51,600 nucleotides of DNA from Phycisphaerales bacterium (GCA_030053995.1 JASGCP010000001.1:1-51600); one strand, 5' to 3'. Counted from the first letter of the stretch, positions 34,069 to 51,109 are shown. Translations and numbers: made by a program. Notes: generated from the sequence alone by a model not told the origin.

Positions 34069-34380
34069 TCAAGCCTTAATTTCTACTTCTACACCAGAAG
34101 GTAAATCTAATTTACTCAGTGCGTCAACTGTTTTAGAAGAAGTCGTATAAATATCCAACAATCGCTTATGGGTACAAAGTTGAAATTGCTCTCTACTTTT
34201 TTTATCCACATGGGGCGATCTTAAAACTGTAAATATCTTTTTTTTTGTAGGCAGAGGAATTGGTCCGGTAACAATGGCTCCTGTTTGCTTCACTGTTTTC
34301 ACAATTTTATCAGCTGACTTATCAACCAAATTGTGATCGAATGATTGTAACTTAATTCTTATTCGTGGAGACATATTCAT
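34069..34380 (-). CDS. rpsJ: 30S ribosomal protein S10
   Basis: ...[22 protein letters not shown]... The start may be the third codon (Met at 34374). Confidence 0.95.
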
Positions 34381-35199: not shown

Positions 35200-35361
35200 T
35201 TGTTCTTTGTCTGAATCACGGATGACATGGATTAAGGGATTACACGGATTATTTTGAAGTTGTTTGAAAAATGATTTTAAAAATTAAATATTTGGCTATT
35301 TTTTCCAAAAATCTGCCTAATCTTGAAGACATGACAGGTTTACAAAAATCACATGCTACTC
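35200..35361. repeat. intergenic repeat A, copy 1 (GGAT-iteron-containing element)
   Basis: About 90% identical to 38350-38511. Contains cacGGATgacatGGATtaagGGATtacacGGATt. A degenerate partial tandem copy lies at about 35148-35199, and an E-like motif (ttgagatgctaag) at about 35091. Confidence 0.8.
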
Positions 35362-36087
35362 AGTTATTTGGTTAGGGTGGCTATAATTTGTAGTAACTCT
35401 AATAAAAACTCTTTTCGGTACAAGATGTTTTTCTATTACTTGTCCCCCAATCTCTATTGCTTTTGACCCAAGTTCTATTGCTTTTACTTCAAGTTTTAGT
35501 GCGTTTGGCGTAGCCTCATGAAAAATTCTACCATGGTATTTTTTTATCCAACCAATTTGCTCATCATCTTTGTAAACTTTAACTGCAAACTTATCGTCTT
35601 GATTAGTAGATTCTAATTGATAAGTAAGAATATCTCTTATTTGCAAAGTATTTCTACAATGCTTAATCTTATTTAAACCTACTATCTCGGTAACAAAATG
35701 AAGCCCGTCAATGTAGTTATAATCAGCTAAAAATTCAAAATTATCGGTTAGCAACATTCCTTGCGTTTTACCCAACAAATAAAACTTATCATTAGCCTTA
35801 CTTTTATCTACCTCCCAAAAATTATAAAAATTATCAATATCAGGTCTGGAACTCTTTGTTAATCTTTGAGCAAATATATCCACCACATTGCCATTATACA
35901 CCTTAGTTACATCTTGAAACTCTGTATAAGGTTTAAATCCTTCTACTGTTTGTAATATTTCTTCTGAAGAATAACTAAAAGTATGCTTACCCATATCGTC
36001 TTTTTGGATTGTCCCAATAGCAGTTCTTCGCTGCCCCGCCACCCTACGCCATATTAAATATATTTTGCTAAATTCTGCTTGTATCAT
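35356..36087 (-). CDS. HipS-like N-terminal domain fused to a HIRAN domain (putative partner/antitoxin of the adjacent kinase)
   Basis: 243 aa. The N-terminal half (AIGTIQKDDMGKHTFSYS...IFAQRL...FYLLGKTQGMLLTDNFEF) follows the HipA N-subdomain-1 pattern (VGxL..F.Y...F..LLP..R....F.LL...G.D..GA). The C-terminal part (FVTEIVGL...LTYQLESTNQDDKFAVKVYKDDEQIGWIKK) is HIRAN-like. Only 1 nt separates it from the kinase stop. Confidence 0.55.
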   Translation of the reverse strand: MIQAEFSKIYLIWRRVAGQRRTAIGTIQKDDMGKHTFSYSSEEILQTVEGFKPYTEFQDVTKVYNGNVVDIFAQRLTKSSRPDIDNFYNFWEVDKSKANDKFYLLGKTQGMLLTDNFEFLADYNYIDGLHFVTEIVGLNKIKHCRNTLQIRDILTYQLESTNQDDKFAVKVYKDDEQIGWIKKYHGRIFHEATPNALKLEVKAIELGSKAIEIGGQVIEKHLVPKRVFIRVTTNYSHPNQITE

Positions 36088-36088
36088 T

Positions 36089-37054
36089 TTATTTGTTATT
36101 TTTAAGAATTGCTCTTAGCTTAGCGATACGCAAAGTTAAGAGTTTAATAATTAATGCTTTTCTTTCTTTAGGAATGCAATGCGATTTCATATTACAGGGT
36201 ATTACCTCATCTATTTCAAGCATTATATTTTGAATAATTGCCTCATCAAATTTTTCTATAAAAACAGATGCATCTTTAAGTTGTTCATTATAAACTGGAT
36301 CGGCTAACATTTTCTCAACCAAATCAAAATGACTAATTTTTTGACCCTTCCAATGCAATTCACTCTTTCCACCCGCAATATATTTTTCTAAATCTTGTTC
36401 ATTATTTAATAACCCATTCACGCTTTCATCAGTCAATTCTCGTGCCAAAGAGCTACCATTATCATATATGGGCGCTGTTTTATAATAATTAGGATCATGG
36501 ACAAATGCGGTGTTGGGTTTACCAATAAAAGCCCAATTTTCTTGATGTCTATCTGTATTTCCGATAACAGCATCAAATAGTAGCGTTTCAAAAAAGAAAT
36601 TATTAAATTTTTCTAATTCAAATTTTTGTAATGTTTCCATTAACAGTTGAAAAGTATATTGCTTTCTTGTTTCAGTTTTATCAGGTTCAAAATCCTGATT
36701 TATTGCTATCATAAACTTACCAACTTCTATTAAATTTGTGTCATCTATAACAGTCATATTGGGACTTATACATCCTAATTCATTATCGAAAAGTGCAATG
36801 TCATATCTAAGAATGTCTAATCCTAAACTTTTCCCTAATTGATAGGCAATAATTTCATTGTAGAATTCATAACGATAATATTTTTCTGGTTTATTATCTT
36901 TAGATAGTGTTTTTGCAGAATATTTAAGATAAAACTGCTTGCCGTTAGCATCTTGTAATATTTTTTTTGCTCTGGTACCACCACTGGCATGCCAAGATAA
37001 TTGTTCCCATTTTGAAGCATCAATAAACTTTATATCCACCTGATAACTGCACAT
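36089..37054 (-). CDS. HipA-family Ser/Thr kinase, HipT-like (core kinase without N-subdomain 1)
   Basis: Catalytic motif GNTDRHQENWAF, Mg-binding APIYDNGSSL and a Gly-rich loop HASGGTRAKK. The ATG at 37054 is preferred. The ORF track extends to a GTG at 37120 through a Tyr-rich, improbable leader. Confidence 0.8.
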   Translation of the reverse strand: MCSYQVDIKFIDASKWEQLSWHASGGTRAKKILQDANGKQFYLKYSAKTLSKDNKPEKYYRYEFYNEIIAYQLGKSLGLDILRYDIALFDNELGCISPNMTVIDDTNLIEVGKFMIAINQDFEPDKTETRKQYTFQLLMETLQKFELEKFNNFFFETLLFDAVIGNTDRHQENWAFIGKPNTAFVHDPNYYKTAPIYDNGSSLARELTDESVNGLLNNEQDLEKYIAGGKSELHWKGQKISHFDLVEKMLADPVYNEQLKDASVFIEKFDEAIIQNIMLEIDEVIPCNMKSHCIPKERKALIIKLLTLRIAKLRAILKNNK

Positions 37055-37303
37055 AGAAATTTTTGAAGAGTCCCAACAGTAATAATAGTAAATAAAATGG
37101 TAAAAAGAATGTAAACGCACATGGACAATTTCATTAGTAGCATTGTAAAACTATACAATTAATGGTTAATGCGTGATGATATAGTATTTAATAAATATGG
37201 GCAATTACAAAATCATTAAACATTGCTATGTCTTATCAGGATTCAATTGCTTCCAGATTGATATAGAGGACAAATAAATTCAATAAAAAAGGGTAGAAAC
37301 GCA

Positions 37304-37926: not shown

Positions 37927-37953
37927 ATTGTTTTTACGGCATGATAACCACAA

Positions 37954-37994
37954 AAGGCAAAATAAATTATCTAATAATCTATTTTGCCTTTTTT
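37954..37994 (+). terminator. Rho-independent terminator
   Basis: 10-bp perfect stem aaggcaaaat/attttgcctt (37954-37963 / 37981-37990), then TTTT. Confidence 0.6.
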
Positions 37995-38349
37995 CTAACT
38001 ATTTTTATTATACTATCATTCAGGCATCAACAATAAACATATAGCTTTAAGGGGATAGAAGTATCAGAATGAAAAGAAATAAAGAAACAGCCTATATCAT
38101 ACTAAGAAAATAATTGCTTAAAATTCAATTGGGATACTAATCATCATTATAATTATTATCGTTGGAATTAGTATTTTGTTGAAGCAATAACAATTTTTTA
38201 TTTATTACCCTAATTTCGCAAGTAGTTTAGGCAAAGAAGGTTAAAAGCCTTTAAAATAAAGGGGGTTAAATATTTGGGCTAAATCATATTTTGAGGTGCT
38301 AAGATGTTTTAGGGGTGGTGGAAAAATGTTGTTATTTTTGTATGGAAAT

Positions 38350-38612
38350 TGCTCTTTTGTCTGAATCACGGATTACACGGATTAAGGGGATTACACAGAT
38401 TATTTGGTACTTGTTTAAAAAATGATTTAAAAAATTAAATGCTTGGATATTTTTCCAAAAATCTGCCTAATCTTGAAGACATGACAGGTTTACCAAAATC
38501 ACATGCTACTCTTGATATAGTATTGTGCATAACGATTGCAGGTTATTTTTTTGCAAGGGGGGATATGCGAAAATTAACTGTAATTGCATTAGCCAATTAT
38601 TTCATTGTATAG
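38350..38612. repeat. intergenic repeats A+B, copy 2 (uninterrupted)
   Basis: A (38350-38511) runs directly into B (38501-38612). Preceded by E motif gctaaatcatattttgaggtgctaaga (38278-38304), which also occurs at 8565-8591 (24/27). Confidence 0.8.
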
Positions 38613-38651
38613 GTTAATTTTCTGTAGTTTGAGAGACATTCGTATTTGTAA

Positions 38652-40433
38652 TTAATGCTGTATTAGCTTTTTATCTATTGCGTAATAAAATGAAAATTCA
38701 TCATCTAGTTTTTGTAGATATATTTTTACATCTTCGTCTAAATATTGGTAAGAACTAAGTACATCCTTATCTGTAATGATAATAGTGTGTCTTTTAGCAC
38801 GACTGGTTGCAACATTAAATAACCGCTTCTCTAAAGAATGATTATACCCTGCATTAGGAATTACAAATATCGCTACATCGGTTGTTAAACCTTGTATCCG
38901 TGCGACCGTTTCTATAAGTAAATTTTTATGATTCCCAATTTTTTGATAAATAAATTTTTGTAAGGCTTTTACAGTGTCTATATAATTGCTTAAAACAGAA
39001 ATGTGCAAAGACGCATTGCTTTGTAGTAAATGTATTACTAAAGCTAACGCAATTTCTAAAACATTTATGGGCTTTTTGTTACCAATTTCTAAATCTGTTT
39101 TAATAAGCGTAGGTCCCCCTTGTGCATTAAAAAATACACCTAAGTCGTCAAGTGTTTTTGGAAAAATTAAAGACCTATCTTCTTTCGTTTTAGATTGTAA
39201 ACTATTATTATAAAATAACCCTGTATATTTTGCAGCCCTGCTTGTTAATCGATATGATTCAGTTAACTGAAAAATAAGAATTGATGAAGAAGCTGATAGT
39301 GCTTTTAATCCATCAACCAAAAAGATGAAATTCTTTTTGCTCACCCTATCTTCATTTAACGAAACGACCGGCGGTAATTGCTTTGTATCACCTATCCAAA
39401 TATTTTTTTTACCTAAAAGTTTCGCAACTGCAAACATACCCAGCAAGGCTTGACTTGCTTCATCGATAATTACATAATCGAAAGGGGGCATATCTGTTAT
39501 GTTTGTCGCTTCGCTGCTGGCTATAAAAAAAGTTGTTAGGACTAAATTACTTGGTTGTGGCAATAAACTATTTGTTGATTTTAAGTGCGGTGTATTTTTA
39601 TTTTCATCTACAGAAACTTTGGTTTTGAAAATTTTACCTTCCTGCAACATATCAGCCAATGCCGGTTTTCCGGCAACTTCAATCAATGCTCTATTAGTAA
39701 GTGCCGTTACTAAAACAGATTTTCCTTGTGTGCACAATTGTTTACATATTGCCGCAATTTGATATGTTTTTCCTGTTCCGGGTGGACCAATTAAAACAAC
39801 TTGATCGGTTAGCTGTAATTGATTAATTATTAAACTGGGTATATTTTGATGCGTATTAAGCAAAGAAGGTGTCAAATTGCTATCTCTAAAAGACTGATCC
39901 AAAATGAAATTTACACCTTTGGTAAAGTTGTTCTGTGCAATTGTTTGTAAATTAGCAATATACTCAAAAGGCGGTTTAACTGGTCCCAAAAGCAAAATCA
40001 TTTTTTCAGCCTTTGAAATATTTTCTGCAAATTCTAAGTCCACACCACGAAAGCCGGCAATGCAAAAATCATTTTCCACTTTACCGTTTAAATCTTTGGA
40101 AGGACTATGCCACACACAAACAGTTTCAGTAAAATTAGCTTTTGCTTTAATTAAGTCGCCATAAGTTCTATCACCCCAATTTCTGTAATCCCGCAATTCC
40201 TTGGGCACCGTAAAGCAGTACAAATAGGCACTCGTACGAGGTAGCCCCCGCTTTGTTGACAATTTTAAAATCATCTCTCCGTCCTTAAAATTTAAAAATT
40301 GTGCAACGAAAAGTTCTTCGCGATCTTGTAATAACGAAATAGCCTTAGTATCTAACTTTTGATTAAAAACTCGTGTTTGTGCTTGAAGTTCTTCTTCAAG
40401 AAAACCGCAATGTTCCTCTCTTGTGTACTTCAT
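38652..40433 (-). CDS. Superfamily 1B helicase, Upf1/Dna2-like (AAA_11/AAA_12 type)
   Basis: 593 aa. Walker A LIGPPGTGKT, motif II VIIDEASQ, motif III WIGDTKQLPPV, motif V RIQGLTTDVAIF and motif VI NVATSRAKRHTIII. About 190 aa of N-terminal domain are of unknown type. Confidence 0.85.
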   Translation of the reverse strand: MKYTREEHCGFLEEELQAQTRVFNQKLDTKAISLLQDREELFVAQFLNFKDGEMILKLSTKRGLPRTSAYLYCFTVPKELRDYRNWGDRTYGDLIKAKANFTETVCVWHSPSKDLNGKVENDFCIAGFRGVDLEFAENISKAEKMILLLGPVKPPFEYIANLQTIAQNNFTKGVNFILDQSFRDSNLTPSLLNTHQNIPSLIINQLQLTDQVVLIGPPGTGKTYQIAAICKQLCTQGKSVLVTALTNRALIEVAGKPALADMLQEGKIFKTKVSVDENKNTPHLKSTNSLLPQPSNLVLTTFFIASSEATNITDMPPFDYVIIDEASQALLGMFAVAKLLGKKNIWIGDTKQLPPVVSLNEDRVSKKNFIFLVDGLKALSASSSILIFQLTESYRLTSRAAKYTGLFYNNSLQSKTKEDRSLIFPKTLDDLGVFFNAQGGPTLIKTDLEIGNKKPINVLEIALALVIHLLQSNASLHISVLSNYIDTVKALQKFIYQKIGNHKNLLIETVARIQGLTTDVAIFVIPNAGYNHSLEKRLFNVATSRAKRHTIIITDKDVLSSYQYLDEDVKIYLQKLDDEFSFYYAIDKKLIQH

Positions 40434-40435
40434 GT

Positions 40436-43400
40436 CTATAATTGGGTTTCATCATCAGCACTTAAATCCTCCTCAGTTTTTCTATCATCAAAACGGTAAT
40501 CCGATAACCTTTGTGCCGTATTATTATCTGTGCTTAGTTTATCAAACTCAAAATGCACCGATTCAAAATATCTTAACAAGGTAGCAAACTTATTTAATCG
40601 ATCTTGCCTGTCTAAATTTTCAGTACTAAAACTAAGGGTTATTCTATCTTGCATTCTTAAAAGCTCAAATAATTTTATACACTTGCATACATTGTTTCCA
40701 AAATACACCCACAAGCATGCGTTAGGTTTCATAAGCTGTATCCATTCATTAGTGCTAATTTTGAAAGGTTCATCTTGATATTGATAGCTTTTTATAACAA
40801 GTGGATACTCAACGCCATCTTTGAAAACCCCGTCAACTGTAGAGTATTTACCAATTCCTGTTTTAAATTCAAAACCCACGCTTTCTAATTTTTTTTTGAC
40901 AATTTCTTTTGCTACACGGTTGGCTTCAATTTGGTCATTTCGAGAGATGGGTGGAGGGTGTCCGATGCCTAATGTAGCTTTGTTTTTTTCTCTTAATTGT
41001 TCAACCTCTTTTTCTAATATATCTAATTTGTTTTGCCATAATTCATCAAAATTAAAATCGCTATTTTCTTCTAATTCTAATTTTCGTAATTCTTTTTTAA
41101 TATCAGACTTTTTATTTATATAGATATGATTTTTATCATCAATTGCAATATTACCTTCATAAAAATAATAAAATAGACAATCTTCAATTTCATCAAGTAA
41201 AACAGATTTTGGCAACGCACCTTCGTATAGATAAATCAATATCTTAGATTCTTGTTTCCAATTTTCATAATACGGTTCTTCCCATTCTGTTGATTTTTCT
41301 GCCAATTCTTCAAAATCAGATGCTTCTTCAATTTTTAAATCCTTATTGTTGGTTCGGTTGTCATTGATAACCGCAACGACCGCCTTAAATGTTTCAAATT
41401 GTTCTGTTGTTTTAAGTTTAATTTCTTTTTCTTTTAACCATTGAAACGAATTAAATAATACTGTTTGGTCTTCGTTAAAATGTGTTTCTTGTGCTAAACG
41501 GTTATTATGAAAAACATTGATTTCACCACTTAAATATTGTCGCAATTCAACTATTACAGAATTTTCAGTCCAAATACCTAAGTCTGTTAAAAAATCAATT
41601 TTGCTTTTCGCGTTGCCAATCCATTTTATCAGATAATCAGGTAGGGCTTCACTTTCACAAGCGTATTTACTTGGGAAAACAGATGTAGTTGGATTAAACC
41701 CTAAAATATTTACAGTTTCCACATCGTCAATTTTACTCCAATCAATGTTTTTGATTGCTGTCTTTTTATTTTTCTTATCCCATTGATCGAAAAGGAACTC
41801 TAAAAGACTTATTTTCCCTTCATCCGATAAGTCATTTTTGATATATGGACAAACAAATTCATCATCTTCAAAGTATGGTTTCTTAATGAGTAATAAATTG
41901 TCATTATCATCTACTTTAACAGGAAATCTTTTAAATATTTTAGTAATACCACTGTATTTGTGATGAAGTATTTCGGATTGTTGTACAAAATCAAAGTCCG
42001 TTAAATATTTATCCGTTCCTAAATCAACCTCTTCTTCCTTTACATTCAGAGCTTTAAATTGATTGAAATTTATTTTTTCAATATGTAGTCCATAAAGAAA
42101 TAAAAAAGCTAACTGTTCCGAATTAACTAACAGTTGATATTTTTCAGAAAAAATCTTAAAAACCGCTTGTAAGTCAGGCTCTTGAGTTACTCCTAAAATC
42201 TTGCGGAGCTTTTCTTTATTCAAACCAAGACTCTCAAATTGATTCATTAATCTGCTCAAAAGACCTGTATTTTCGTAATTTTCAGGTAAAATTGTAGCAA
42301 GACTAAGTTCACAATCCCCAACTTTAATATTATCAGCGGACGGCGGTATTTTTGAAATTTTTGTTCTGCCCCTGTTTGTTTGAATAAAAATTTTTTCTTT
42401 GAAATTTTGATAATCACTTTCCTTTAATTCATTACAGGCTAAGTTTAGAATTTTAAATTCATAATCCTCTTTACAATAATTTCTTTCAGAATTAATATTT
42501 ATCTCTGATATTTCTTGTAAGAATATATTTTTAGCGTCATATTTTAAAATATCTACAAGAATTTCCTTGTAATCATCTATATTATTAACATATTTTAAAA
42601 TAAATTTATACAGATCATTACCTTTTATTATGCCCTCATCATCTTTACAATTTTCTACAAACTCATACGGAATAACAAATAGATTTTGAGTGCAATTTTT
42701 GTCGATAAAATTTCTTACTTTTCCATCACCTGATTGAACTTGATAATTGTCGGTTAATTTTCTATCAATAACAAAAAAGCCATTTTTCTTCTTAATAATA
42801 AATTCCTGAAAAAAAAACTTCTTATTATCTTTATAAAAAGCAATTAATTCTTGTATTTTTTCTGAAGTAGTAAGCTGGGGTATAATTTCATCTTGTTTTA
42901 GCTGATATATTTTTGAAAAAATATCAACAGATTTAATAACTAAATAATTTTCTAATTCTGAAAAATATTCATTCTGTTTTATTTTATAGGCATTAAGCCA
43001 GCTGTATGTTTTAACATTTCCAATGAGGTTGTTGAGGGGTTTGACCAAGGAATTGCTATCACAAAATAACGATAAATTACCAAGTATGCTTTCACCTACA
43101 TTATCAAATTTCGTTTGTTCGCCTATTAGATTAAGAAATAAATTTTTCTTTTCAAATTCAGAAAGATTGTTGTTTTTGCATTTTTCAGCAATTAATTCGT
43201 AATATTTTTTGTCTTCTGGAAACTGAATTAAAGAAAATATATTTCGATGATTTTCTATTGGTATATTTGAAATTACAAATCCTAATTTTAATAATTCAGC
43301 TCTTATTTTAATTGTTTTTTTATTAATAAAAAAACAGTTTGAATAGTTAAAATTAAAACTTCCATAATTGTTCTTCGAAACAACTTCATTGAAAGAAAAA

Positions 43401-45136
43401 AAATCACCATTAGAAAACTTAAAAAGTTTGATTTTACAAATTTTCTCTTTGGTTTCTTTACGCAAATGGCAATATTCTAATTCCTTTAAAAAATCATTAT
43501 AAACTTCATCATTGCATGAGGCTATCCATTTATTAATATCTTCAATCGCCGCATTTTCCACAATATGTCCAATATCCCATTCTTTTATACCCAATTTATC
43601 TTCCTTTGCGGCTTCATCTGTTAAGATTTTATCAGCATCTTTATTCCACGCAAACCATTGAATATGTCCGAGATTAAAATCAGATAAATTTAAATTGAGC
43701 TTTGTTTTCTTTATCTTAACATTATTAATATTATTAGCAATACAACCATTTTGAGTTGGTATATTTATTTTTAGTGATTGTAAAATCTCATCATAAAATA
43801 TTGGACGCAACCAATTATTATTTTCTTTATTAGGTATATCTGATAACAACAACGCCACATACATATTTAAAAAATGATTGCGATTTGTTGTTTGGTATTC
43901 AACAAGTTTTTGAGCAATATACTTTGCAATCTCAGGAAATAAATTTTTATTTACAGCATCTTTTTGCAATTTTCTTCTATTTGCTTCGTTACTAAAACTA
44001 TCACAGTGCACTATAAAACCAAATCCATTAGTTTCATCACCCATTGGGAAATATTTGTAAAAATTAGGTCTGGATTTTAATTCACATATTTGAGTATACG
44101 CAGCTTCTTTACCAAATTCAACAGTTTTAAAACCTATTGCGAATTTTATATCGAATTCTTTGTACTCGGGGACAATTCTTTTAAATTCTTCACTTTCTTT
44201 TTTGATGCTCCCTTCCTCAAGTTGTAATGATATTTTATGTAAAACCTCATCATTGACATAAACAGTCTCTAAGCGTTTTAGTGTATTCATTGAGTATCGA
44301 ATGCCATTTATAAGTTCTGAGTAGTCCTTGTCTAGCAATTGCTTTTTACCTTCGCCAAGTTTAATAAAAAATAAACTACCTTGGTTAAGAAAATCTTTAT
44401 TTAAACTATTAGCGTGTTTATTAAAGTTTTCGTGTAGATAAGAGATTAAATTATTTAGTTCATCTTGTTGAAATAGTATTTTATCATTGTAGTCAATATC
44501 TTTTACTGTTTCGTTAGGATCCGTAGGGAAATTCGTAATTAATATCTTGAGCAAATACGGAATATCGTTATTAACATTTTCAAGCCTATCAGCATGTTCT
44601 ATTTTTTCTCCCTTCATAAGAGCGTCTAGATCCTCAAATTTAGACCAACTGAAAAGAATGGGACCTTGAAACTGCCCTACTAATTCATCTGTCCCTTCAT
44701 TTTTGCCAACCAATCTATGTGCCAATTTAAAACCAATTCCAAACCGTCCGATTGTGTCAGAATTTATTTTGGTCGATTGAGCAATATTAAGAATAGATCT
44801 TAATCCATCTTGAGTAAAAGGAACACCGTTGTTAAGTGCTAAAAAATATTCTTCATTGTAGAAAATGTAAAAGTGTGTAGAGCCACAATCAACAGCGTTT
44901 TGCAAAAATTCATAAATAGCTTGTCCATCTTCTGCTATTTTGAGTATTGAAGGTAAATAACTTGCAATATTAGGCTTATCTCCATGATACATTTCAAAAA
45001 AACCTTTGATATGCTCCCCCCTTTCTTCATAATATGTACCAACAAAATTTTCATTATATGACTGATCAGAATCCTTTAACTTCTTTACTTCAGTTTTATA
45101 CCAATTCCTAAATAATCTTGCACTTTTAATTTTCAT
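40436..45136 (-). CDS. giant sacsin/NOV-like GHKL ATPase with DUF3883-like C-terminal module
   Basis: 1566 aa. N-box IYEFLQNAVDCGS, G1-like LNNGVPF, G2 GRFGIGFK and sacsin-type FIVHCDSFSNEANRRKL. About 1000 aa in the middle are unassigned. The C-terminal segment VAKEIVKKKLESVGFEF...VDGVFKDGVEYPLVIKSYQ...FKISTNEW resembles DUF3883 (restriction-endonuclease-like fold). The tail is acidic. Its stop is 2 nt from the helicase ATG. Confidence 0.75.
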   Translation of the reverse strand: MKIKSARLFRNWYKTEVKKLKDSDQSYNENFVGTYYEERGEHIKGFFEMYHGDKPNIASYLPSILKIAEDGQAIYEFLQNAVDCGSTHFYIFYNEEYFLALNNGVPFTQDGLRSILNIAQSTKINSDTIGRFGIGFKLAHRLVGKNEGTDELVGQFQGPILFSWSKFEDLDALMKGEKIEHADRLENVNNDIPYLLKILITNFPTDPNETVKDIDYNDKILFQQDELNNLISYLHENFNKHANSLNKDFLNQGSLFFIKLGEGKKQLLDKDYSELINGIRYSMNTLKRLETVYVNDEVLHKISLQLEEGSIKKESEEFKRIVPEYKEFDIKFAIGFKTVEFGKEAAYTQICELKSRPNFYKYFPMGDETNGFGFIVHCDSFSNEANRRKLQKDAVNKNLFPEIAKYIAQKLVEYQTTNRNHFLNMYVALLLSDIPNKENNNWLRPIFYDEILQSLKINIPTQNGCIANNINNVKIKKTKLNLNLSDFNLGHIQWFAWNKDADKILTDEAAKEDKLGIKEWDIGHIVENAAIEDINKWIASCNDEVYNDFLKELEYCHLRKETKEKICKIKLFKFSNGDFFSFNEVVSKNNYGSFNFNYSNCFFINKKTIKIRAELLKLGFVISNIPIENHRNIFSLIQFPEDKKYYELIAEKCKNNNLSEFEKKNLFLNLIGEQTKFDNVGESILGNLSLFCDSNSLVKPLNNLIGNVKTYSWLNAYKIKQNEYFSELENYLVIKSVDIFSKIYQLKQDEIIPQLTTSEKIQELIAFYKDNKKFFFQEFIIKKKNGFFVIDRKLTDNYQVQSGDGKVRNFIDKNCTQNLFVIPYEFVENCKDDEGIIKGNDLYKFILKYVNNIDDYKEILVDILKYDAKNIFLQEISEININSERNYCKEDYEFKILNLACNELKESDYQNFKEKIFIQTNRGRTKISKIPPSADNIKVGDCELSLATILPENYENTGLLSRLMNQFESLGLNKEKLRKILGVTQEPDLQAVFKIFSEKYQLLVNSEQLAFLFLYGLHIEKINFNQFKALNVKEEEVDLGTDKYLTDFDFVQQSEILHHKYSGITKIFKRFPVKVDDNDNLLLIKKPYFEDDEFVCPYIKNDLSDEGKISLLEFLFDQWDKKNKKTAIKNIDWSKIDDVETVNILGFNPTTSVFPSKYACESEALPDYLIKWIGNAKSKIDFLTDLGIWTENSVIVELRQYLSGEINVFHNNRLAQETHFNEDQTVLFNSFQWLKEKEIKLKTTEQFETFKAVVAVINDNRTNNKDLKIEEASDFEELAEKSTEWEEPYYENWKQESKILIYLYEGALPKSVLLDEIEDCLFYYFYEGNIAIDDKNHIYINKKSDIKKELRKLELEENSDFNFDELWQNKLDILEKEVEQLREKNKATLGIGHPPPISRNDQIEANRVAKEIVKKKLESVGFEFKTGIGKYSTVDGVFKDGVEYPLVIKSYQYQDEPFKISTNEWIQLMKPNACLWVYFGNNVCKCIKLFELLRMQDRITLSFSTENLDRQDRLNKFATLLRYFESVHFEFDKLSTDNNTAQRLSDYRFDDRKTEEDLSADDETQL

Positions 45137-45477: not shown

Positions 45478-47070
45478 TTAATTTACTTCTATAATATAGA
45501 CAAACTTTTTAAGAACCTTCACTTGTTCCGTTAAAGGTTTTCCTACAAGTATATTTATTGTTTGGAGTTTAGGGGATATCGGTATTGAATTAATAAGATT
45601 TATTAAGTATGATGTCTTAATAGCGTATGAGACATTTTCTGCACTTGCGTGATGGGCATTGACTGTTCCTATAATATTTCCATTATCGTCAAACAATGGT
45701 CCACCACTATTACCAGGTTGAATAGGTGTTGTTATTTGATAACTAGTAACATCCCCTTGGAACCCCGTTTTAGCACTAACTATCCCATTTGTTATTTTTA
45801 CCTCATCGCCCATTGTTGCCCGCAAAGGATAACCTAAACAAAAAACTGAACTTCCTACATCTGAAACACGACTTGCGATGATATAAGGAACAGTTCCTAA
45901 AGTAGTAAAACTTGGGTCATCTATTTTTATAATTGCGAGATCATTATTTTTATCTTCAATTACAACTTTTGCCGTATAGTTTTTTGAAAAATCTCCATTA
46001 ATACCCCTTACTTGTATAGATGTTGCCCCCTTTGTAACATGATAATTTGTTACAATATATCCACTTGATGTAATTGCGTAGCCAGTTGCTGACCCTCCAC
46101 CTTCTTGATGTAAGTTAGCAATATTGTCTGTTGATGATGGAAACATTTTTATGTATAATTCTTTGTTGTTTTCCCCTGTAAATAAATTAAAATAACCTTG
46201 TTCAAATTTGATATAGTAATCGTTGTTCACACTTTTATCTAACATTATCCACTTTACCTTATAAAATAATGGCGTTGCAGTTTGTTCTAGTGTTGCTTTA
46301 ATTTCACCTTCCTCCCAATTACCTGTATTCTTAGCCCCTGACAAATAAATCAAATAATAAGTTTGATTAATTTTTCTAACTGCAACTTTATACTTTAAAA
46401 ATGAGACTGTACCACTTGAAAAAATCGAAGATGCTTCATAAATACCTTCAATTTTATCACAACCATTTAACTCTATGTAATTTTTAATCTTGTTTTCAGT
46501 CCAACAAGTTTGTAACTTAGGTAGTTTTAATGTATAATCACTATTAAAATGAGGCTTCGTATATCCATACATACTTACTAGTACATTTCTAAAATCACCT
46601 GCATTACAATAAGCATATCCCCCCCTTGGATCAACTATTTTATTAGTCGAAAAATCATATGCATAACCAGTAACGGGGGACCAAAAAGTCATGCCGATAT
46701 TGTAAAAACTAACATAATTATAGTCGAATGATATATCTACATAAACTTCTTCACAAGCATTAGAAGGTAATAGCGAGCCATCACCGTAATACCGAACACT
46801 TCTAAATCCAATATCTTCCAAATATTGTTCAAGACCATTATATGCTGGAATTTGTCCATTTATTTTTGCTTTACTATGAATAACTGCATATTTTACCCCT
46901 GATAAAAATGCATCAAAATTTGGTTTACTTGACTTCGGAATATATTTTATTATATCACACTCTTCGGCAGAGTTTGATATAAATTGCTGTTTTAAGGAAG
47001 GGTTATCAATAATCTGTCCTATGCTGCATTGTGCAAATAATAAAAAAAATAGTATGAACCTCATATACAT
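45478..47070 (-). CDS. secreted trypsin-like (S1C/HtrA-type catalytic domain) serine protease with unknown N-terminal domain
   Basis: 530 aa. Signal peptide MYMRFILFFLLFAQCSIG. Catalytic triad context TNYHVT / NDLAIIKI / GNSGGPLF in the C-terminal ~200 aa. No PDZ domain. Confidence 0.75.
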   Translation of the reverse strand: MYMRFILFFLLFAQCSIGQIIDNPSLKQQFISNSAEECDIIKYIPKSSKPNFDAFLSGVKYAVIHSKAKINGQIPAYNGLEQYLEDIGFRSVRYYGDGSLLPSNACEEVYVDISFDYNYVSFYNIGMTFWSPVTGYAYDFSTNKIVDPRGGYAYCNAGDFRNVLVSMYGYTKPHFNSDYTLKLPKLQTCWTENKIKNYIELNGCDKIEGIYEASSIFSSGTVSFLKYKVAVRKINQTYYLIYLSGAKNTGNWEEGEIKATLEQTATPLFYKVKWIMLDKSVNNDYYIKFEQGYFNLFTGENNKELYIKMFPSSTDNIANLHQEGGGSATGYAITSSGYIVTNYHVTKGATSIQVRGINGDFSKNYTAKVVIEDKNNDLAIIKIDDPSFTTLGTVPYIIASRVSDVGSSVFCLGYPLRATMGDEVKITNGIVSAKTGFQGDVTSYQITTPIQPGNSGGPLFDDNGNIIGTVNAHHASAENVSYAIKTSYLINLINSIPISPKLQTINILVGKPLTEQVKVLKKFVYIIEVN

Positions 47071-47380: not shown

Positions 47381-48154
47381 TTATTTCTTTTTACACAAAT
47401 TATATCTAATTACTTGGGCTGCACCTTTCTGTTTTAAATGAGCAACTGATTTGTTAATATACAGGTTTCTAATTTCGTCTTGTGCAACTACCCCATCAAA
47501 ACCATAACCTGGTACCATAACTTTCTCTATTATATTATTTTTTTTATCAATAGTTTTATTTTTAGGTCTTGGTTTAGAGTACCAATTTTTTACTTCAAAT
47601 ACTTCAACGACAAGCCCTCTAAATTCACTCAAAACATATTTTATTTTTTCCAATCTCGACTTTTGAATTAACCAAGTTTCTTTTGTTGCTTGATAAATTG
47701 GCTCTGTTCCATTACCACGCTTATATGTTTTGTTTATGTTAATCAACACACAATCCATAGCCATTTCATTGAGTGGTTGAGCATTGTAAAGTCTTATGAT
47801 TTCCTCCGAAGTCATAAGTCCTTTTTCAATAGATTTATGCCCACCAACAACATTGGATAGTAGAATACCACAATAGGTTAAAGTATCAATTAAAGAATCT
47901 TCTATTTTAAATGCCTCATCTTCTGAAAGTCCGTGTCTGACAATAATATGATTTACTTCCTTTTTACTTTCTATAATCTCTCTTATTTTATCATATTTAG
48001 CATTTGAAGTATCAGTATCTTTTAATGCACATAAACAATGATCAAATACTCTGTTACCAACACCCTTGCCAACATAGAAAGGATTATTGTCTGTCGGATC
48101 AAGTAACACATAAACATAATATCTTAAATGCTGTATTGTTTTTTCATCAAACAT
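47381..48154 (-). CDS. GIY-YIG nuclease superfamily protein (COG3680-like)
   Basis: 257 aa. N-terminal YYVYVLLDPTDNNPFYVGKGVGNRVFDH is a GIY-YIG motif pair. The C-terminal domain is uncharacterised. Confidence 0.65.
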   Translation of the reverse strand: MFDEKTIQHLRYYVYVLLDPTDNNPFYVGKGVGNRVFDHCLCALKDTDTSNAKYDKIREIIESKKEVNHIIVRHGLSEDEAFKIEDSLIDTLTYCGILLSNVVGGHKSIEKGLMTSEEIIRLYNAQPLNEMAMDCVLININKTYKRGNGTEPIYQATKETWLIQKSRLEKIKYVLSEFRGLVVEVFEVKNWYSKPRPKNKTIDKKNNIIEKVMVPGYGFDGVVAQDEIRNLYINKSVAHLKQKGAAQVIRYNLCKKK

Positions 48155-48264: not shown

Positions 48265-49242
48265 TTAATTATCTTCTTCTTTTTCTTTTAACGGGATGTG
48301 GTTTTGTTTACAATATTCTTTAATAGCTTCCTCATGGAGTAAACAAGGATCACATGTTTCATTCAATGCTTTCATTAGCACTTCATGATTTTTATCTTTA
48401 TCTTCATTTAGAATATTATTAATTTTTTCTACGAAATCTTTAAAATCATAATTGTTATTGCAAAGTTTGTCAATAGTTTTTAAGTCAATATCTTTAAACT
48501 TTGCATCAACTATGACTTTTGATCTAAATGGATTTGAATGTAATTCTATAACACCAATGCCAAAGGATTCATTAAGTCGTTCTATTTCTGAGTATAAATT
48601 AACACTAACTTTATAAGCTACTAAATAACCCAAATTTGCCCAACTTGAATTTGATACGGCTTGAAAATATTTTTCTTTTAAATCAATGTCTGTTTTAACA
48701 TCTTTTTTAATCTCATAAGAGTAGAGTTTAAATATCTTATGATTTTTTATTGTCGTCATAAATTTTCTACTTTCTGGATTTTGAAATTTATGGAACTTAA
48801 TACCAATCATATCAGGATGTGTCCATATTTGATTTTCATCTTTGCCCTTTGATTTCTCATGAGAAATTGTTTTTGACAATATTTCTATACTACCTAAATA
48901 GGAACTTAAAAGCATATGTAAAGATTTTTCTTTATATTCTTTTTCATTTGATCTATTGCTATTTTCAGTTACCCCAACCTCAAAATTTGAAAGAATAGCC
49001 GTTTCATTTTTTGCCAAGTAATAAACGTATTTTCCTTCAGAGGACTCCATTCGTTTGACTCTTGAATCGCCACTTCTAATAAAATTACCTAAGCGTGAAG
49101 AAACTGAATTCATAGGAGTTTCTGCATTTTGAAAATCGTATAGCTTTTGCTCTTGAATAAATGTGCAAATTTGTTTGAAATCTACAGGAATTTTAAAATT
49201 TTCTAAACCTTCTATAATCGCGTCTGTGAGTGTTTTTTTCAT
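48265..49242 (-). CDS. HARE-HTH (winged helix) N-terminal domain fused to a PD-(D/E)xK-like nuclease domain
   Basis: 325 aa. The N-terminus LTDAIIEGLENFKIPVDFKQICTFIQEQKLY...SVSSRLGNFI...YYL is HARE-HTH-like. The C-terminal half has THPDMIG ... SYEIKK ... QAVSNSSWANLGYLVA, a PD...ExK arrangement. Resembles the COG2958 layout from memory. Confidence 0.5.
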   Translation of the reverse strand: MKKTLTDAIIEGLENFKIPVDFKQICTFIQEQKLYDFQNAETPMNSVSSRLGNFIRSGDSRVKRMESSEGKYVYYLAKNETAILSNFEVGVTENSNRSNEKEYKEKSLHMLLSSYLGSIEILSKTISHEKSKGKDENQIWTHPDMIGIKFHKFQNPESRKFMTTIKNHKIFKLYSYEIKKDVKTDIDLKEKYFQAVSNSSWANLGYLVAYKVSVNLYSEIERLNESFGIGVIELHSNPFRSKVIVDAKFKDIDLKTIDKLCNNNYDFKDFVEKINNILNEDKDKNHEVLMKALNETCDPCLLHEEAIKEYCKQNHIPLKEKEEDN

Positions 49243-50158: not shown

Positions 50159-51109
50159 TTAATTTTGCCATAACGGTTGGTTTTGCCAGCCTAAAAGATT
50201 GCCTCGCCCATCTGACGGGATACCGACATATTTTATTGGTATGTTTGGATATTTTTGAAATAATGCTACTAACTTTTCCTTGAAACTATTATTGGGATTA
50301 ATCCTATTAAGTAAATATTTTAATATACAAAGAAAATAGAATACTCTTTTATTGTTGTTATATACTAAATCTACCCAAAGCCCAATAGGATTAGAGAGGA
50401 TAGCCGGTTCAACTGCCAAATCTTTATTCCACAACCGTGAATGGTGTGCACATATATTTCGTGTATATGTTATTGAATGAAGCCAAGATGTAAACACCTT
50501 AAAATGTATATCAAAAGATTGAGCAATTCTTTTTTTGTCATCTTTATTTTTTAACCCCCTATATAAATGAGACATTTCTCCAATAGTTAATAACTCAAAA
50601 CACATCCAAGAAGGTGGGTTGTAAGGTATGTTGTACTCGTCTAAATAATGTTGAATATATACTTCAGTTGCTCTTGATTTTTTAGCTCTTGAAATAATAT
50701 TTTGAAAATCAGAAAAAGGGTCAATTAAATTACCTACTTTGTTTTTATAGGGACCTATAAAATATTGTTTTTTGTCTTGCCAATGACTATCATTGTAATG
50801 CGTAGCCATACAATAAATAAATTGTGTACGAATCGCTACTTCAATGCGTTCAATACAATCAAAAACCAATAACCGTAATTCACGATCAAAAGAATAAGTG
50901 TCAATAATTTGTTTAAATGTAGTACCATCATCAAACCAATCTTTTGTGGACTGATAGGGTAAGAAATATGCACTTAAGCGATAGTAACTAATATTAGCTA
51001 AAATAAAAAGTGCCTTAGAGTCATCTTCTACATATATATTACGATCTTTGAGTTGTTGTAATTGTTCGGAAAACAACTTTGGTGGTTTATTGTAGGTTCG
51101 TTTGCTCAT
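50159..51109 (-). CDS. Abi_2 family abortive-infection protein (AbiD/AbiF-like)
   Basis: 316 aa. Hallmarks ISYYRLSAYFLPYQ and RNICAHHSRLWN. Confidence 0.8.
   Translation of the reverse strand: MSKRTYNKPPKLFSEQLQQLKDRNIYVEDDSKALFILANISYYRLSAYFLPYQSTKDWFDDGTTFKQIIDTYSFDRELRLLVFDCIERIEVAIRTQFIYCMATHYNDSHWQDKKQYFIGPYKNKVGNLIDPFSDFQNIISRAKKSRATEVYIQHYLDEYNIPYNPPSWMCFELLTIGEMSHLYRGLKNKDDKKRIAQSFDIHFKVFTSWLHSITYTRNICAHHSRLWNKDLAVEPAILSNPIGLWVDLVYNNNKRVFYFLCILKYLLNRINPNNSFKEKLVALFQKYPNIPIKYVGIPSDGRGNLLGWQNQPLWQN

Follow-up and report, generated by a model that had tools for sequence, protein, structure and literature searches.

The DNA analysed here is a stretch of 51,600 nucleotides (nt) from a Phycisphaerales bacterium (GCA_030053995.1, JASGCP010000001.1:1-51600), referred to below as the window, and its subject is a pair of closely spaced minus-strand genes at positions 38,652 to 45,136 that encode a giant GHKL ATPase and an Upf1-like helicase of superfamily 1B (SF1B). 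A prediction made from the sequence alone had singled out this pair as a candidate defence system that could not be mapped onto any named one. Comparison with protein families now places the first gene in TmtA, the family of the Tiamat system, and points to the second as its partner in a putative two-gene anti-phage cassette. The features of the locus are as follows.

40436..45136, minus strand: tmtA-like gene encoding a giant sacsin-type GHKL ATPase of 1566 amino acids (aa), Tiamat family (open reading frame, ORF; PADLOC TmtA model PDLC03970).
43937..45004, minus strand: N-terminal sacsin-type GHKL (Bergerat) ATPase module, aa ~45-400 (HATPase_c_3, P_loop_sacsin, invariant columns in a 24-sequence alignment).
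41102..43936, minus strand: middle region, aa 401-1345, conserved within the family and without a named domain (Pfam, AlphaFold2 [AF2], Foldseek).
40439..41101, minus strand: C-terminal module (CTM), aa 1346-1566, comprising a coiled coil, a degenerate PD-(D/E)xK fold and the acidic tail DLSADDETQL (Hjc-like fold, family comparisons).
40790..40798, minus strand: codons V1447-I1448-K1449, at the place of the (D/E)-x-K catalytic motif (motif comparison).
40431..40438, minus strand: gene junction TAG-AC-ATG with a 2-nt gap, compatible with translational coupling (read from the sequence).
38652..40433, minus strand: Upf1/IGHMBP2-like SF1B helicase of 593 aa, a PIN-less member of a helicase-PIN family (ORF, AAA_11/AAA_12, PDB sequence matches, Foldseek).
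39864..40433, minus strand: N-terminal ~190 aa of the helicase, a long helix and a beta-rich unit read as an Upf1-type stalk and 1B barrel (AF2 secondary structure and structural alignment; the assignment is inferred).
38655..39863, minus strand: RecA1/RecA2 motor core of the helicase (motifs located).

The original prediction was right about the layout of the locus, in that two minus-strand ORFs of 1566 and 593 aa do meet at the TAG-AC-ATG junction, and the helicase gene is probably translationally coupled to the tmtA-like gene. It was also right to describe the operon as AT-rich: its GC content is 0.26-0.32, where most of the first 34 kb of the window has 0.33-0.38. A scan for promoters and terminators, of a kind ill suited to Bacteroidota promoters, returned counts equal to chance.

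The large protein was compared with the PADLOC hidden Markov models (HMMs) alone, that is without PADLOC's own coverage rules, and its strongest match was to a model of TmtA, the protein of the Tiamat system, which was reportedly described by Millman et al. in 2022. The match to this model, PDLC03970, has an E value of 0 and a score of 1273 bits over two stretches, the better of which aligns aa 1-758 with positions 1-732 of the 1552 in the profile, and weaker matches were found to PDLC03968, 03965 and 03971. A total of 569 homologues were recovered at E<=1e-10. By tblastn the window protein is homologous over about aa 1-1383 to DUF3883-bearing TmtAs that have no helicase partner and that themselves match PDLC03970 end to end. 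On these alignments the large protein is a member of the TmtA (Tiamat) family. The claim that the locus belonged to no named system is thus wrong for the first gene, given its PADLOC match and its homology to DUF3883-type TmtAs, and one of the two genes already has a name; the claim stands for the pair as a pair, which is captured by none of the PADLOC v2 or NCBIfam models.

The N-terminal ATPase module scores above the cut-offs of both Pfam HATPase_c_3 (26.2 bits, cut-off 25) and NCBIfam P_loop_sacsin (59.6 bits, cut-off 50), and the strings EFLQNAVD (aa 76-83), LNNGVPF (101-107), GRFGIGFK (130-137) and FIVHCDSFSNEANRRKL (374-390) are all present, which bears out the complete sacsin/NOV-type signature that had been predicted. 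Its key positions are E76 and N80 of the N-box, NNG at 102-104, GRFGIGFK at 130-137 and HCDSF...NRRKL at 377-390, and the N-box and glycine-rich motifs are invariant in an alignment of 24 sequences. The glycine motif that follows the N-box (aa 101-107, nt 44816-44836) reads N-N-G, with N102, N103 and G104 invariant in 24 homologues; many GHKL ATPases have D-x-G-x-G at this position. Beyond the ATPase module, the prediction's remark that some 1000 residues hold no nameable motif was likewise upheld, as no Pfam family covers aa 146-1566. The AF2 model of aa 760-1360 has pLDDT values mostly of 85-95, and from aa 760 onward the confidently modelled chain has no match to a solved fold, Foldseek searches of the PDB with the TmtA-like protein having returned nothing significant outside the C-terminal module; a PDB sequence search gave no match at E<=0.01.

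The sole domain-level PDB match of the CTM, obtained with Foldseek from its AF2 model, is the archaeal Holliday-junction resolvase Hjc (probability 0.96 and a TM score of 0.47-0.52 on the target, but E=0.16), and Hjc is a PD-(D/E)xK enzyme. This segment had been predicted to be DUF3883-like, with V-I-K in place of the catalytic triplet. The triplet V1447-I1448-K1449 and the nuclease fold were both found, the triplet standing in the context PLVIKS and the module also holding N-E-W at 1463-1465; a second, unrelated LVIKS occurs at aa 732. The DUF3883 label did not survive, since PF13020 (DUF3883/NOV_C) did not match the large protein at E<=0.1 and an hhalign comparison of a 37-sequence CTM profile with the DUF3883 ends of paralogous TmtAs gave a probability of 2.8%, with 25 columns aligned around x-x-K...N-E-W; the module is here called a degenerate PD-(D/E)xK fold instead.

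The state of the (D/E)-x-K position was taken from an alignment of the motif column, single-linkage clustering of the C-terminal 260-aa segments being too coarse for this purpose. The position that reads V-I-K in the window reads V/T/I-x-K in all close helicase-coupled relatives and I-V-R, F-V-H or N-V-Q in distant coupled forms, and the acidic residue is absent from all CTM sequences examined, while helicase-less TmtAs with a Pfam DUF3883 domain read VDCKGT, IECKGT or VDAKST. An acidic tail of the form DLSxDDExxL is common to the coupled forms. A phmmer search of 1.84 billion representative proteins found the CTM in 194 protein clusters, in which it always closes the chain at its C-terminal end, the proteins being about 1300, 1570-1690, 1800 or 2040-2290 aa long, and a sacsin domain was present in all six CTM-bearing proteins sampled. 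Together with a weak GHKL N-box match, the module is essentially the sole region (49.5% identity) that the window protein has in common with a 1315-aa GHKL protein preceding a helicase-PIN protein, P0135. From these comparisons the CTM appears to be a separate unit tied to the helicase, and its ~220 aa are likely the interface with it. Another CTM-bearing sacsin-GHKL giant, P0392 (2245 aa), has an S1 RNA-binding domain at aa 435-494, N-terminal of its GHKL domain, which hints that some members of the family may bind RNA.

The association of the two genes can be followed well beyond the window. Among 80 loci collected with the TmtA alignment from one-genome-per-species contigs, 13 have a homologue of the window helicase directly downstream of TmtA, at 25-94% identity and with a spacing that is most often exactly 2 nt, as in the window (loci L001-L004, L009 and L029), and otherwise between -20 and +6 nt. 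In the reverse direction, five helicases picked for their long contigs were each preceded directly by a GHKL giant (1315, 1316, 1569, 1629 and 1715 aa). The adjacency of the two families in other genomes, which had been proposed as a check on the prediction, is therefore seen from both sides. Together with the window itself and with L081 and L087, which were reached by way of the helicase, the 13 make 16 loci, and an all-against-all comparison of their ORFs identifies only two common gene families and no conserved third gene, the remaining shared clusters being antisense shadow ORFs. In addition, relatives of ~2300 aa, for example in Flavobacterium silvisoli and Chryseobacterium, carry the SACS-type GHKL protein and a C-terminal AAA_11/AAA_12 helicase in one chain, and such fusions argue for a functional link between the two proteins. 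Judged by synteny and fusion, the helicase is the obligate partner of the tmtA-like gene here. PADLOC models split the fused giants (L080:14903-18091, L074/L076) into TmtA and MkoA-like parts, and the L080 fusion adjoins the HsdR gene of a type I restriction system.

The closest relative of the window locus, L009 from a Chitinophagaceae metagenome-assembled genome, shares with it by blastn a single 80%-identical block (45136..38645), which opens at the start codon of TmtA, closes 7 nt beyond the stop of the helicase and is set in unrelated flanks. Because the homology spans just these two genes, they move as one cassette. A trypsin-like protease encoded upstream was considered as a third component and ruled out, since the homology with L009 starts exactly at the TmtA ATG. 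Identity to L009 is 67% for the N-terminal two-thirds of TmtA and 94% for the helicase, and the synonymous divergence (dS; L009:8001-12749) exceeds 1.3 over TmtA codons 1-1000 but is 0.28-0.43 over codons 1001-1566 and 0.20 in the helicase. This contrast indicates that the C-terminal third of TmtA was inherited together with the helicase while the N-terminal part was exchanged, apparently by recombination with a breakpoint in tmtA around codon 1000. With regard to vehicles of transfer, the search for plasmid carriage gave one weak archaeal match only, and no tRNA that might mark an integration site lies in the window.

The helicase carries every SF1B motif, as predicted: Walker A GPPGTGKT (aa 216-223), motif II IIDEASQ (322-328), GDTKQLPP (348-355), RIQGLTTD (512-519) and NVATSRAKR (540-548), with Pfam scores of 72.8 bits for AAA_11 and 42.4 bits for AAA_12. 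PDB sequence matches are to IGHMBP2, Dna2 and Upf1, and in Foldseek the model matches IGHMBP2 (E 3e-23) and Upf1 (3e-22) over ~670 columns. The N-terminal domain had been thought to be of unknown type. In the model, which over its full length can be superposed on IGHMBP2, Upf1, Dna2 and Sen1, it consists of a long helix followed by beta strands, so that the first 190 aa are most likely an ordinary Upf1-type stalk and 1B barrel.

The family to which this helicase belongs (2964 matches at E<=1e-20) is predominantly one of helicase-PIN proteins. Nearly all of the top 120 homologues (72-75% identity) are ~770 aa long and end in a C-terminal PIN_4 domain (PF13638), and a second abundant clade has the same architecture. 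The window protein ends at aa 593; both it and its 94%-identical twin in L009 stop at the linker and have no PIN domain. The ~725 bp between the helicase stop and a convergent DUF6567 gene (37927-38651) hold no ORF of at least 80 aa. In tblastn searches with PIN extensions this interval showed no similarity to PIN domains, and neither a PIN remnant nor a separate PIN gene was found anywhere in the window at E<=10. Between the helicases of L002, L011, L029 and L031 the motor parts are only 31-37% identical, yet the 159-aa PIN parts reach 77-85%, which speaks either for extreme constraint on the PIN module or for its exchange between lineages. A distant coupled clade in Bacteroidales, Paludibacteraceae and Prevotellaceae (L019, L021, L023) combines TmtAs of 1413-1433 aa with helicases of 667-679 aa, and the ~110-aa C-terminal extension of these helicases is not a PIN domain.

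One would perhaps assume from the clean ending of the helicase, with no trace of the domain that its relatives carry, that the cassette is a decaying remnant, in which an ancestral TmtA and helicase-PIN pair lost its PIN effector and what is left is non-functional but not yet erased. This is unlikely, as both ORFs are intact with all motifs kept, and the window and L009 pairs have diverged from a common PIN-less ancestor under purifying selection (dN/dS 0.145 for the helicase and 0.22 for TmtA), which speaks against simple decay. Moreover, PIN-less forms, each an intact ORF, turn up in at least four to five different places of the helicase tree (the window/L009 pair, L004, P0211, L001 and L007), and that several lineages break off cleanly at the linker, without PIN, is in keeping with a module that can be swapped.

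The surroundings of the cassette contain the following further features.

50159-51109, minus strand: AbiD/Abi_2 gene (PADLOC HMM, 247 bits).
48265-49242, minus strand: 325-aa protein with a HARE-HTH domain and no PADLOC match (profile searches).
47381-48154, minus strand: GIY-YIG protein matching PADLOC PD-T4-3 nearly end to end (PADLOC HMM, 183 bits).
45478-47070, minus strand: 530-aa protein with a C-terminal trypsin-like protease domain (profile searches).
35356-37120, minus strand: PDC-M03A (HipA_C-like kinase, 170 bits) and PDC-M03B (HIRAN-like, 94 bits), adjacent with a 1-nt gap (PADLOC candidate-system HMMs).

The cassette is thus flanked on one side by the AbiD, HARE-HTH, PD-T4-3-like and protease genes and on the other by the DUF6567 gene, the PDC-M03A/B pair and the S10 ribosomal protein operon, which the latter pair adjoins (rpsJ at 34069-34380). 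It sits in a defence island, and the defence-gene context that had been described was confirmed through AbiD, the PD-T4-3 GIY-YIG gene and the HipA-like PDC-M03A/B pair. In other genomes the neighbours of the cassette include pAgo, PglZ, GmrSD, type I, IIG and III restriction-modification systems, OLD/AriA/GajA-like ATPases, SspE, HEC-06 and AbiLi. As for the 530-aa protein, its protease domain resembles the protease part of the retron type XI RT-protease (79 bits) and LmuA-type proteases, its N-terminal ~250 aa had no match in profile searches, and it may represent a separate defence gene.

These observations are best accommodated by an anti-phage cassette of two genes that is complete in itself and belongs to the Tiamat family; in it a TmtA with a degenerate nuclease would act with a coupled Upf1-like SF1B helicase. 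We give this explanation a probability of roughly 0.55. That the locus is a Tiamat-family two-gene defence cassette with an obligate helicase is, taken by itself, very probable, while the order of events proposed here is tentative. By analogy with the GHKL clamps MutL, MORC and the GHKL-Shedu protein VcSduA (PMC12137116), TmtA would be an ATP-driven, dimerising clamp or sensor on infection-specific nucleic acid. In canonical Tiamat it would control a nuclease in cis. In the helicase-coupled forms the degenerate PD-(D/E)xK module and the acidic tail would bind nucleic acid, dock the helicase, or both, without cutting, and the executing activity would come from the Upf1-like SF1B (5'->3') helicase. 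In most relatives the PIN nuclease of the helicase would then degrade the unwound strand; in the PIN-less form of the window, either the helicase would defend by using ATP to unwind or strip phage RNA or replication intermediates, or defence would come from a non-canonical activity of TmtA.

Several observations weigh against this account. Tiamat itself is counted in reviews (PMC12926258) among those systems of Doron et al. 2018 and Millman et al. 2022 that lack a known mechanism. The window helicase lacks the PIN domain of nearly all its top 120 homologues, and the presumed effector is therefore missing. The correlation between motif state and helicase is suggestive, not absolute, because non-acidic-x-K also occurs in some relatives of 1730-1940 aa that have no helicase and because a CTM protein from a Firmicute (L017) has no adjacent helicase. 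The degenerate motif is not provably inactive either, as the conserved N-E-W glutamate could replace the lost acidic residue. Finally, the neighbours of the cassette in L009, its closest relative, gave no PADLOC HMM matches.

It might be argued further that the CTM-bearing GHKL giants and their Upf1-like helicases, with or without PIN, constitute a distinct system and not a cosmetic subtype of Tiamat. In such a system the dead PD-(D/E)xK fold would have become a docking or regulatory module for a 5'->3' helicase acting on RNA or single-stranded DNA, phage RNA or replication intermediates would be surveyed in the manner of Upf1-plus-PIN surveillance, and the window form would defend by its motor alone. 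The Upf1/IGHMBP2 fold, the YlaK/Fcf1-type PIN and the S1 domain of one relative are hints of such RNA surveillance, but the proposal as a whole is at present doubtful.

A different division of labour, resembling that of Hachiman, would make the helicase the sensor, which patrols nucleic acid and, when it encounters a phage cue, releases or activates TmtA as the effector, for instance as a toxic ATP-driven clamp or as a non-canonical nuclease that uses K1449 and E1464. The strong conservation of PLVVKS and NEW in the CTM and the persistence of the system without PIN would agree with such an arrangement, and so might the far faster divergence and recombination of the N-terminal two-thirds of TmtA relative to the helicase, although such speed could be expected of a sensor as much as of an effector that is itself a target. 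A reversal of roles is nevertheless improbable, given that no CTM sequence examined retains the acidic residue, that even the lysine gives way to R, H or Q in distant coupled forms, and that most partner helicases bear a PIN nuclease of their own.

Less probable again is a role outside defence, either as a chaperone-like (sacsin/Hsp90-type) ATPase working with an RNA helicase in the quality control of RNA or ribonucleoproteins, or as a module that maintains a mobile element. Animal sacsin works as a chaperone (PMC3710099), RNA surveillance involves Upf1-like helicases, and both the S1 domain of one CTM protein and the PADLOC-negative neighbourhood of L009 could be read in this light. Against this stand the patchy distribution of the cassette, its transfers between unrelated contexts, the repeated company of restriction-modification, pAgo, BREX PglZ, GmrSD, OLD and Abi genes, and the fact that Tiamat defence was defined from this very protein family. 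The notion that a single-gene Tiamat lies by chance beside an unrelated orphan SF1 helicase or a Mokosh fragment in a defence island can draw on the description of Tiamat as a single-gene system (10.1101/2024.10.26.620412; PADLOC counts in PMC12781566) and on the helicase's best PADLOC match being partial and to MkoA, but is largely refuted by an adjacency kept in 16 loci down to 25% identity with only these two genes in common, by the fused forms, the five reverse look-ups and a homology block that ends at the two-gene edges, and by the lack of a PLD or STK gene.

The two-gene reading of the locus bears on Tiamat in general, a system that is widely found by annotation tools, as the comparison within the family offers a testable handle. 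DUF3883-type members that stand alone keep (D/E)-x-K, whereas members with a degenerate motif have gained a helicase, usually a helicase-PIN, in trans or by fusion, and this contrast suggests that the GHKL body of Tiamat is a sensor or clamp with an exchangeable effector. Current tools would call the window locus a plain single-gene Tiamat and overlook the helicase, so that tmtA cloned alone from such loci could give false negatives. The naturally PIN-less form, for its part, is a built-in test of whether the nuclease is needed.

With respect to known systems, VcSduA, of the paraMORC-type Shedu group, resembles the window system in that an N-terminal GHKL ATPase controls a C-terminal PD-(D/E)xK domain, but there the protein is short, stands alone and has an active DUF4263 nuclease (PMC12137116). 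The window protein has a GHKL domain of the sacsin type, is three times larger, carries a degenerate nuclease motif and is joined by a helicase. Hachiman, which pairs HamA (DUF1837) with the helicase HamB, likewise combines a nuclease-fold protein and a helicase in two genes. However, HamB is an SF2 helicase and that of the window is SF1B, with a GHKL ATPase as its partner, and neither window protein matches the PADLOC models of HamA or HamB, in keeping with the exclusion of Hachiman in the original prediction. Mokosh, which that prediction had also set apart, consists of an Upf1-like COG1112 helicase (MkoA/MkoC) and a PLD nuclease (10.1101/2022.05.11.491447), to which type I adds an STK domain. 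The likeness lies in the use of an Upf1-like SF1B helicase in defence, and MkoA is the best PADLOC match of the window helicase (104 bits). The distinction nevertheless holds, as the match is partial (aa 284-561 against 759-1081 of 1112), the partner here is a GHKL ATPase, Pfam finds no PLD or kinase domain in either window protein, and the adjoining genes encode the protease and the DUF6567 protein.

Tiamat (PADLOC PDLC03964-03971) is much closer, with its giant sacsin-type GHKL ATPase, its PD-(D/E)xK-fold C-terminus and its place in defence islands, the likeness being judged by PADLOC profiles and homologues. Inventories count it as a one-gene system (PMC12781566), and in a survey preprint (10.1101/2024.10.26.620412) it appears with the single-gene systems that contain a PD-(D/E)xK domain. 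Here a helicase gene follows 2 nt downstream, is conserved in 16 loci and is sometimes fused, and V-I-K stands where the DUF3883-type helicase-less relatives keep (D/E)-x-K. The PADLOC v2 and NCBIfam models that miss the pair also fail to capture the degenerate nuclease, the helicase or helicase-PIN partner and the PIN-less state. In the searchable literature we found no description of a GHKL, helicase and PIN system, no mechanistic account of Tiamat and no two-gene form of it, nor a paper that names both TmtA and Tiamat, the text of the Millman preprint being without Tiamat; the two-gene form of the family is apparently undescribed. The nearest counterparts of the window locus are unnamed cassettes of a TmtA-like gene and a helicase-PIN gene (L002, L003, L031, L081 and L087, the last being CP065006.1), which share with it the two-gene order, a 2-nt or overlapping junction, the CTM and a helicase that is 59-75% identical, and which differ from it in that their helicases run to 750-780 aa and end in a C-terminal PIN_4 domain, whereas that of the window stops at the linker.

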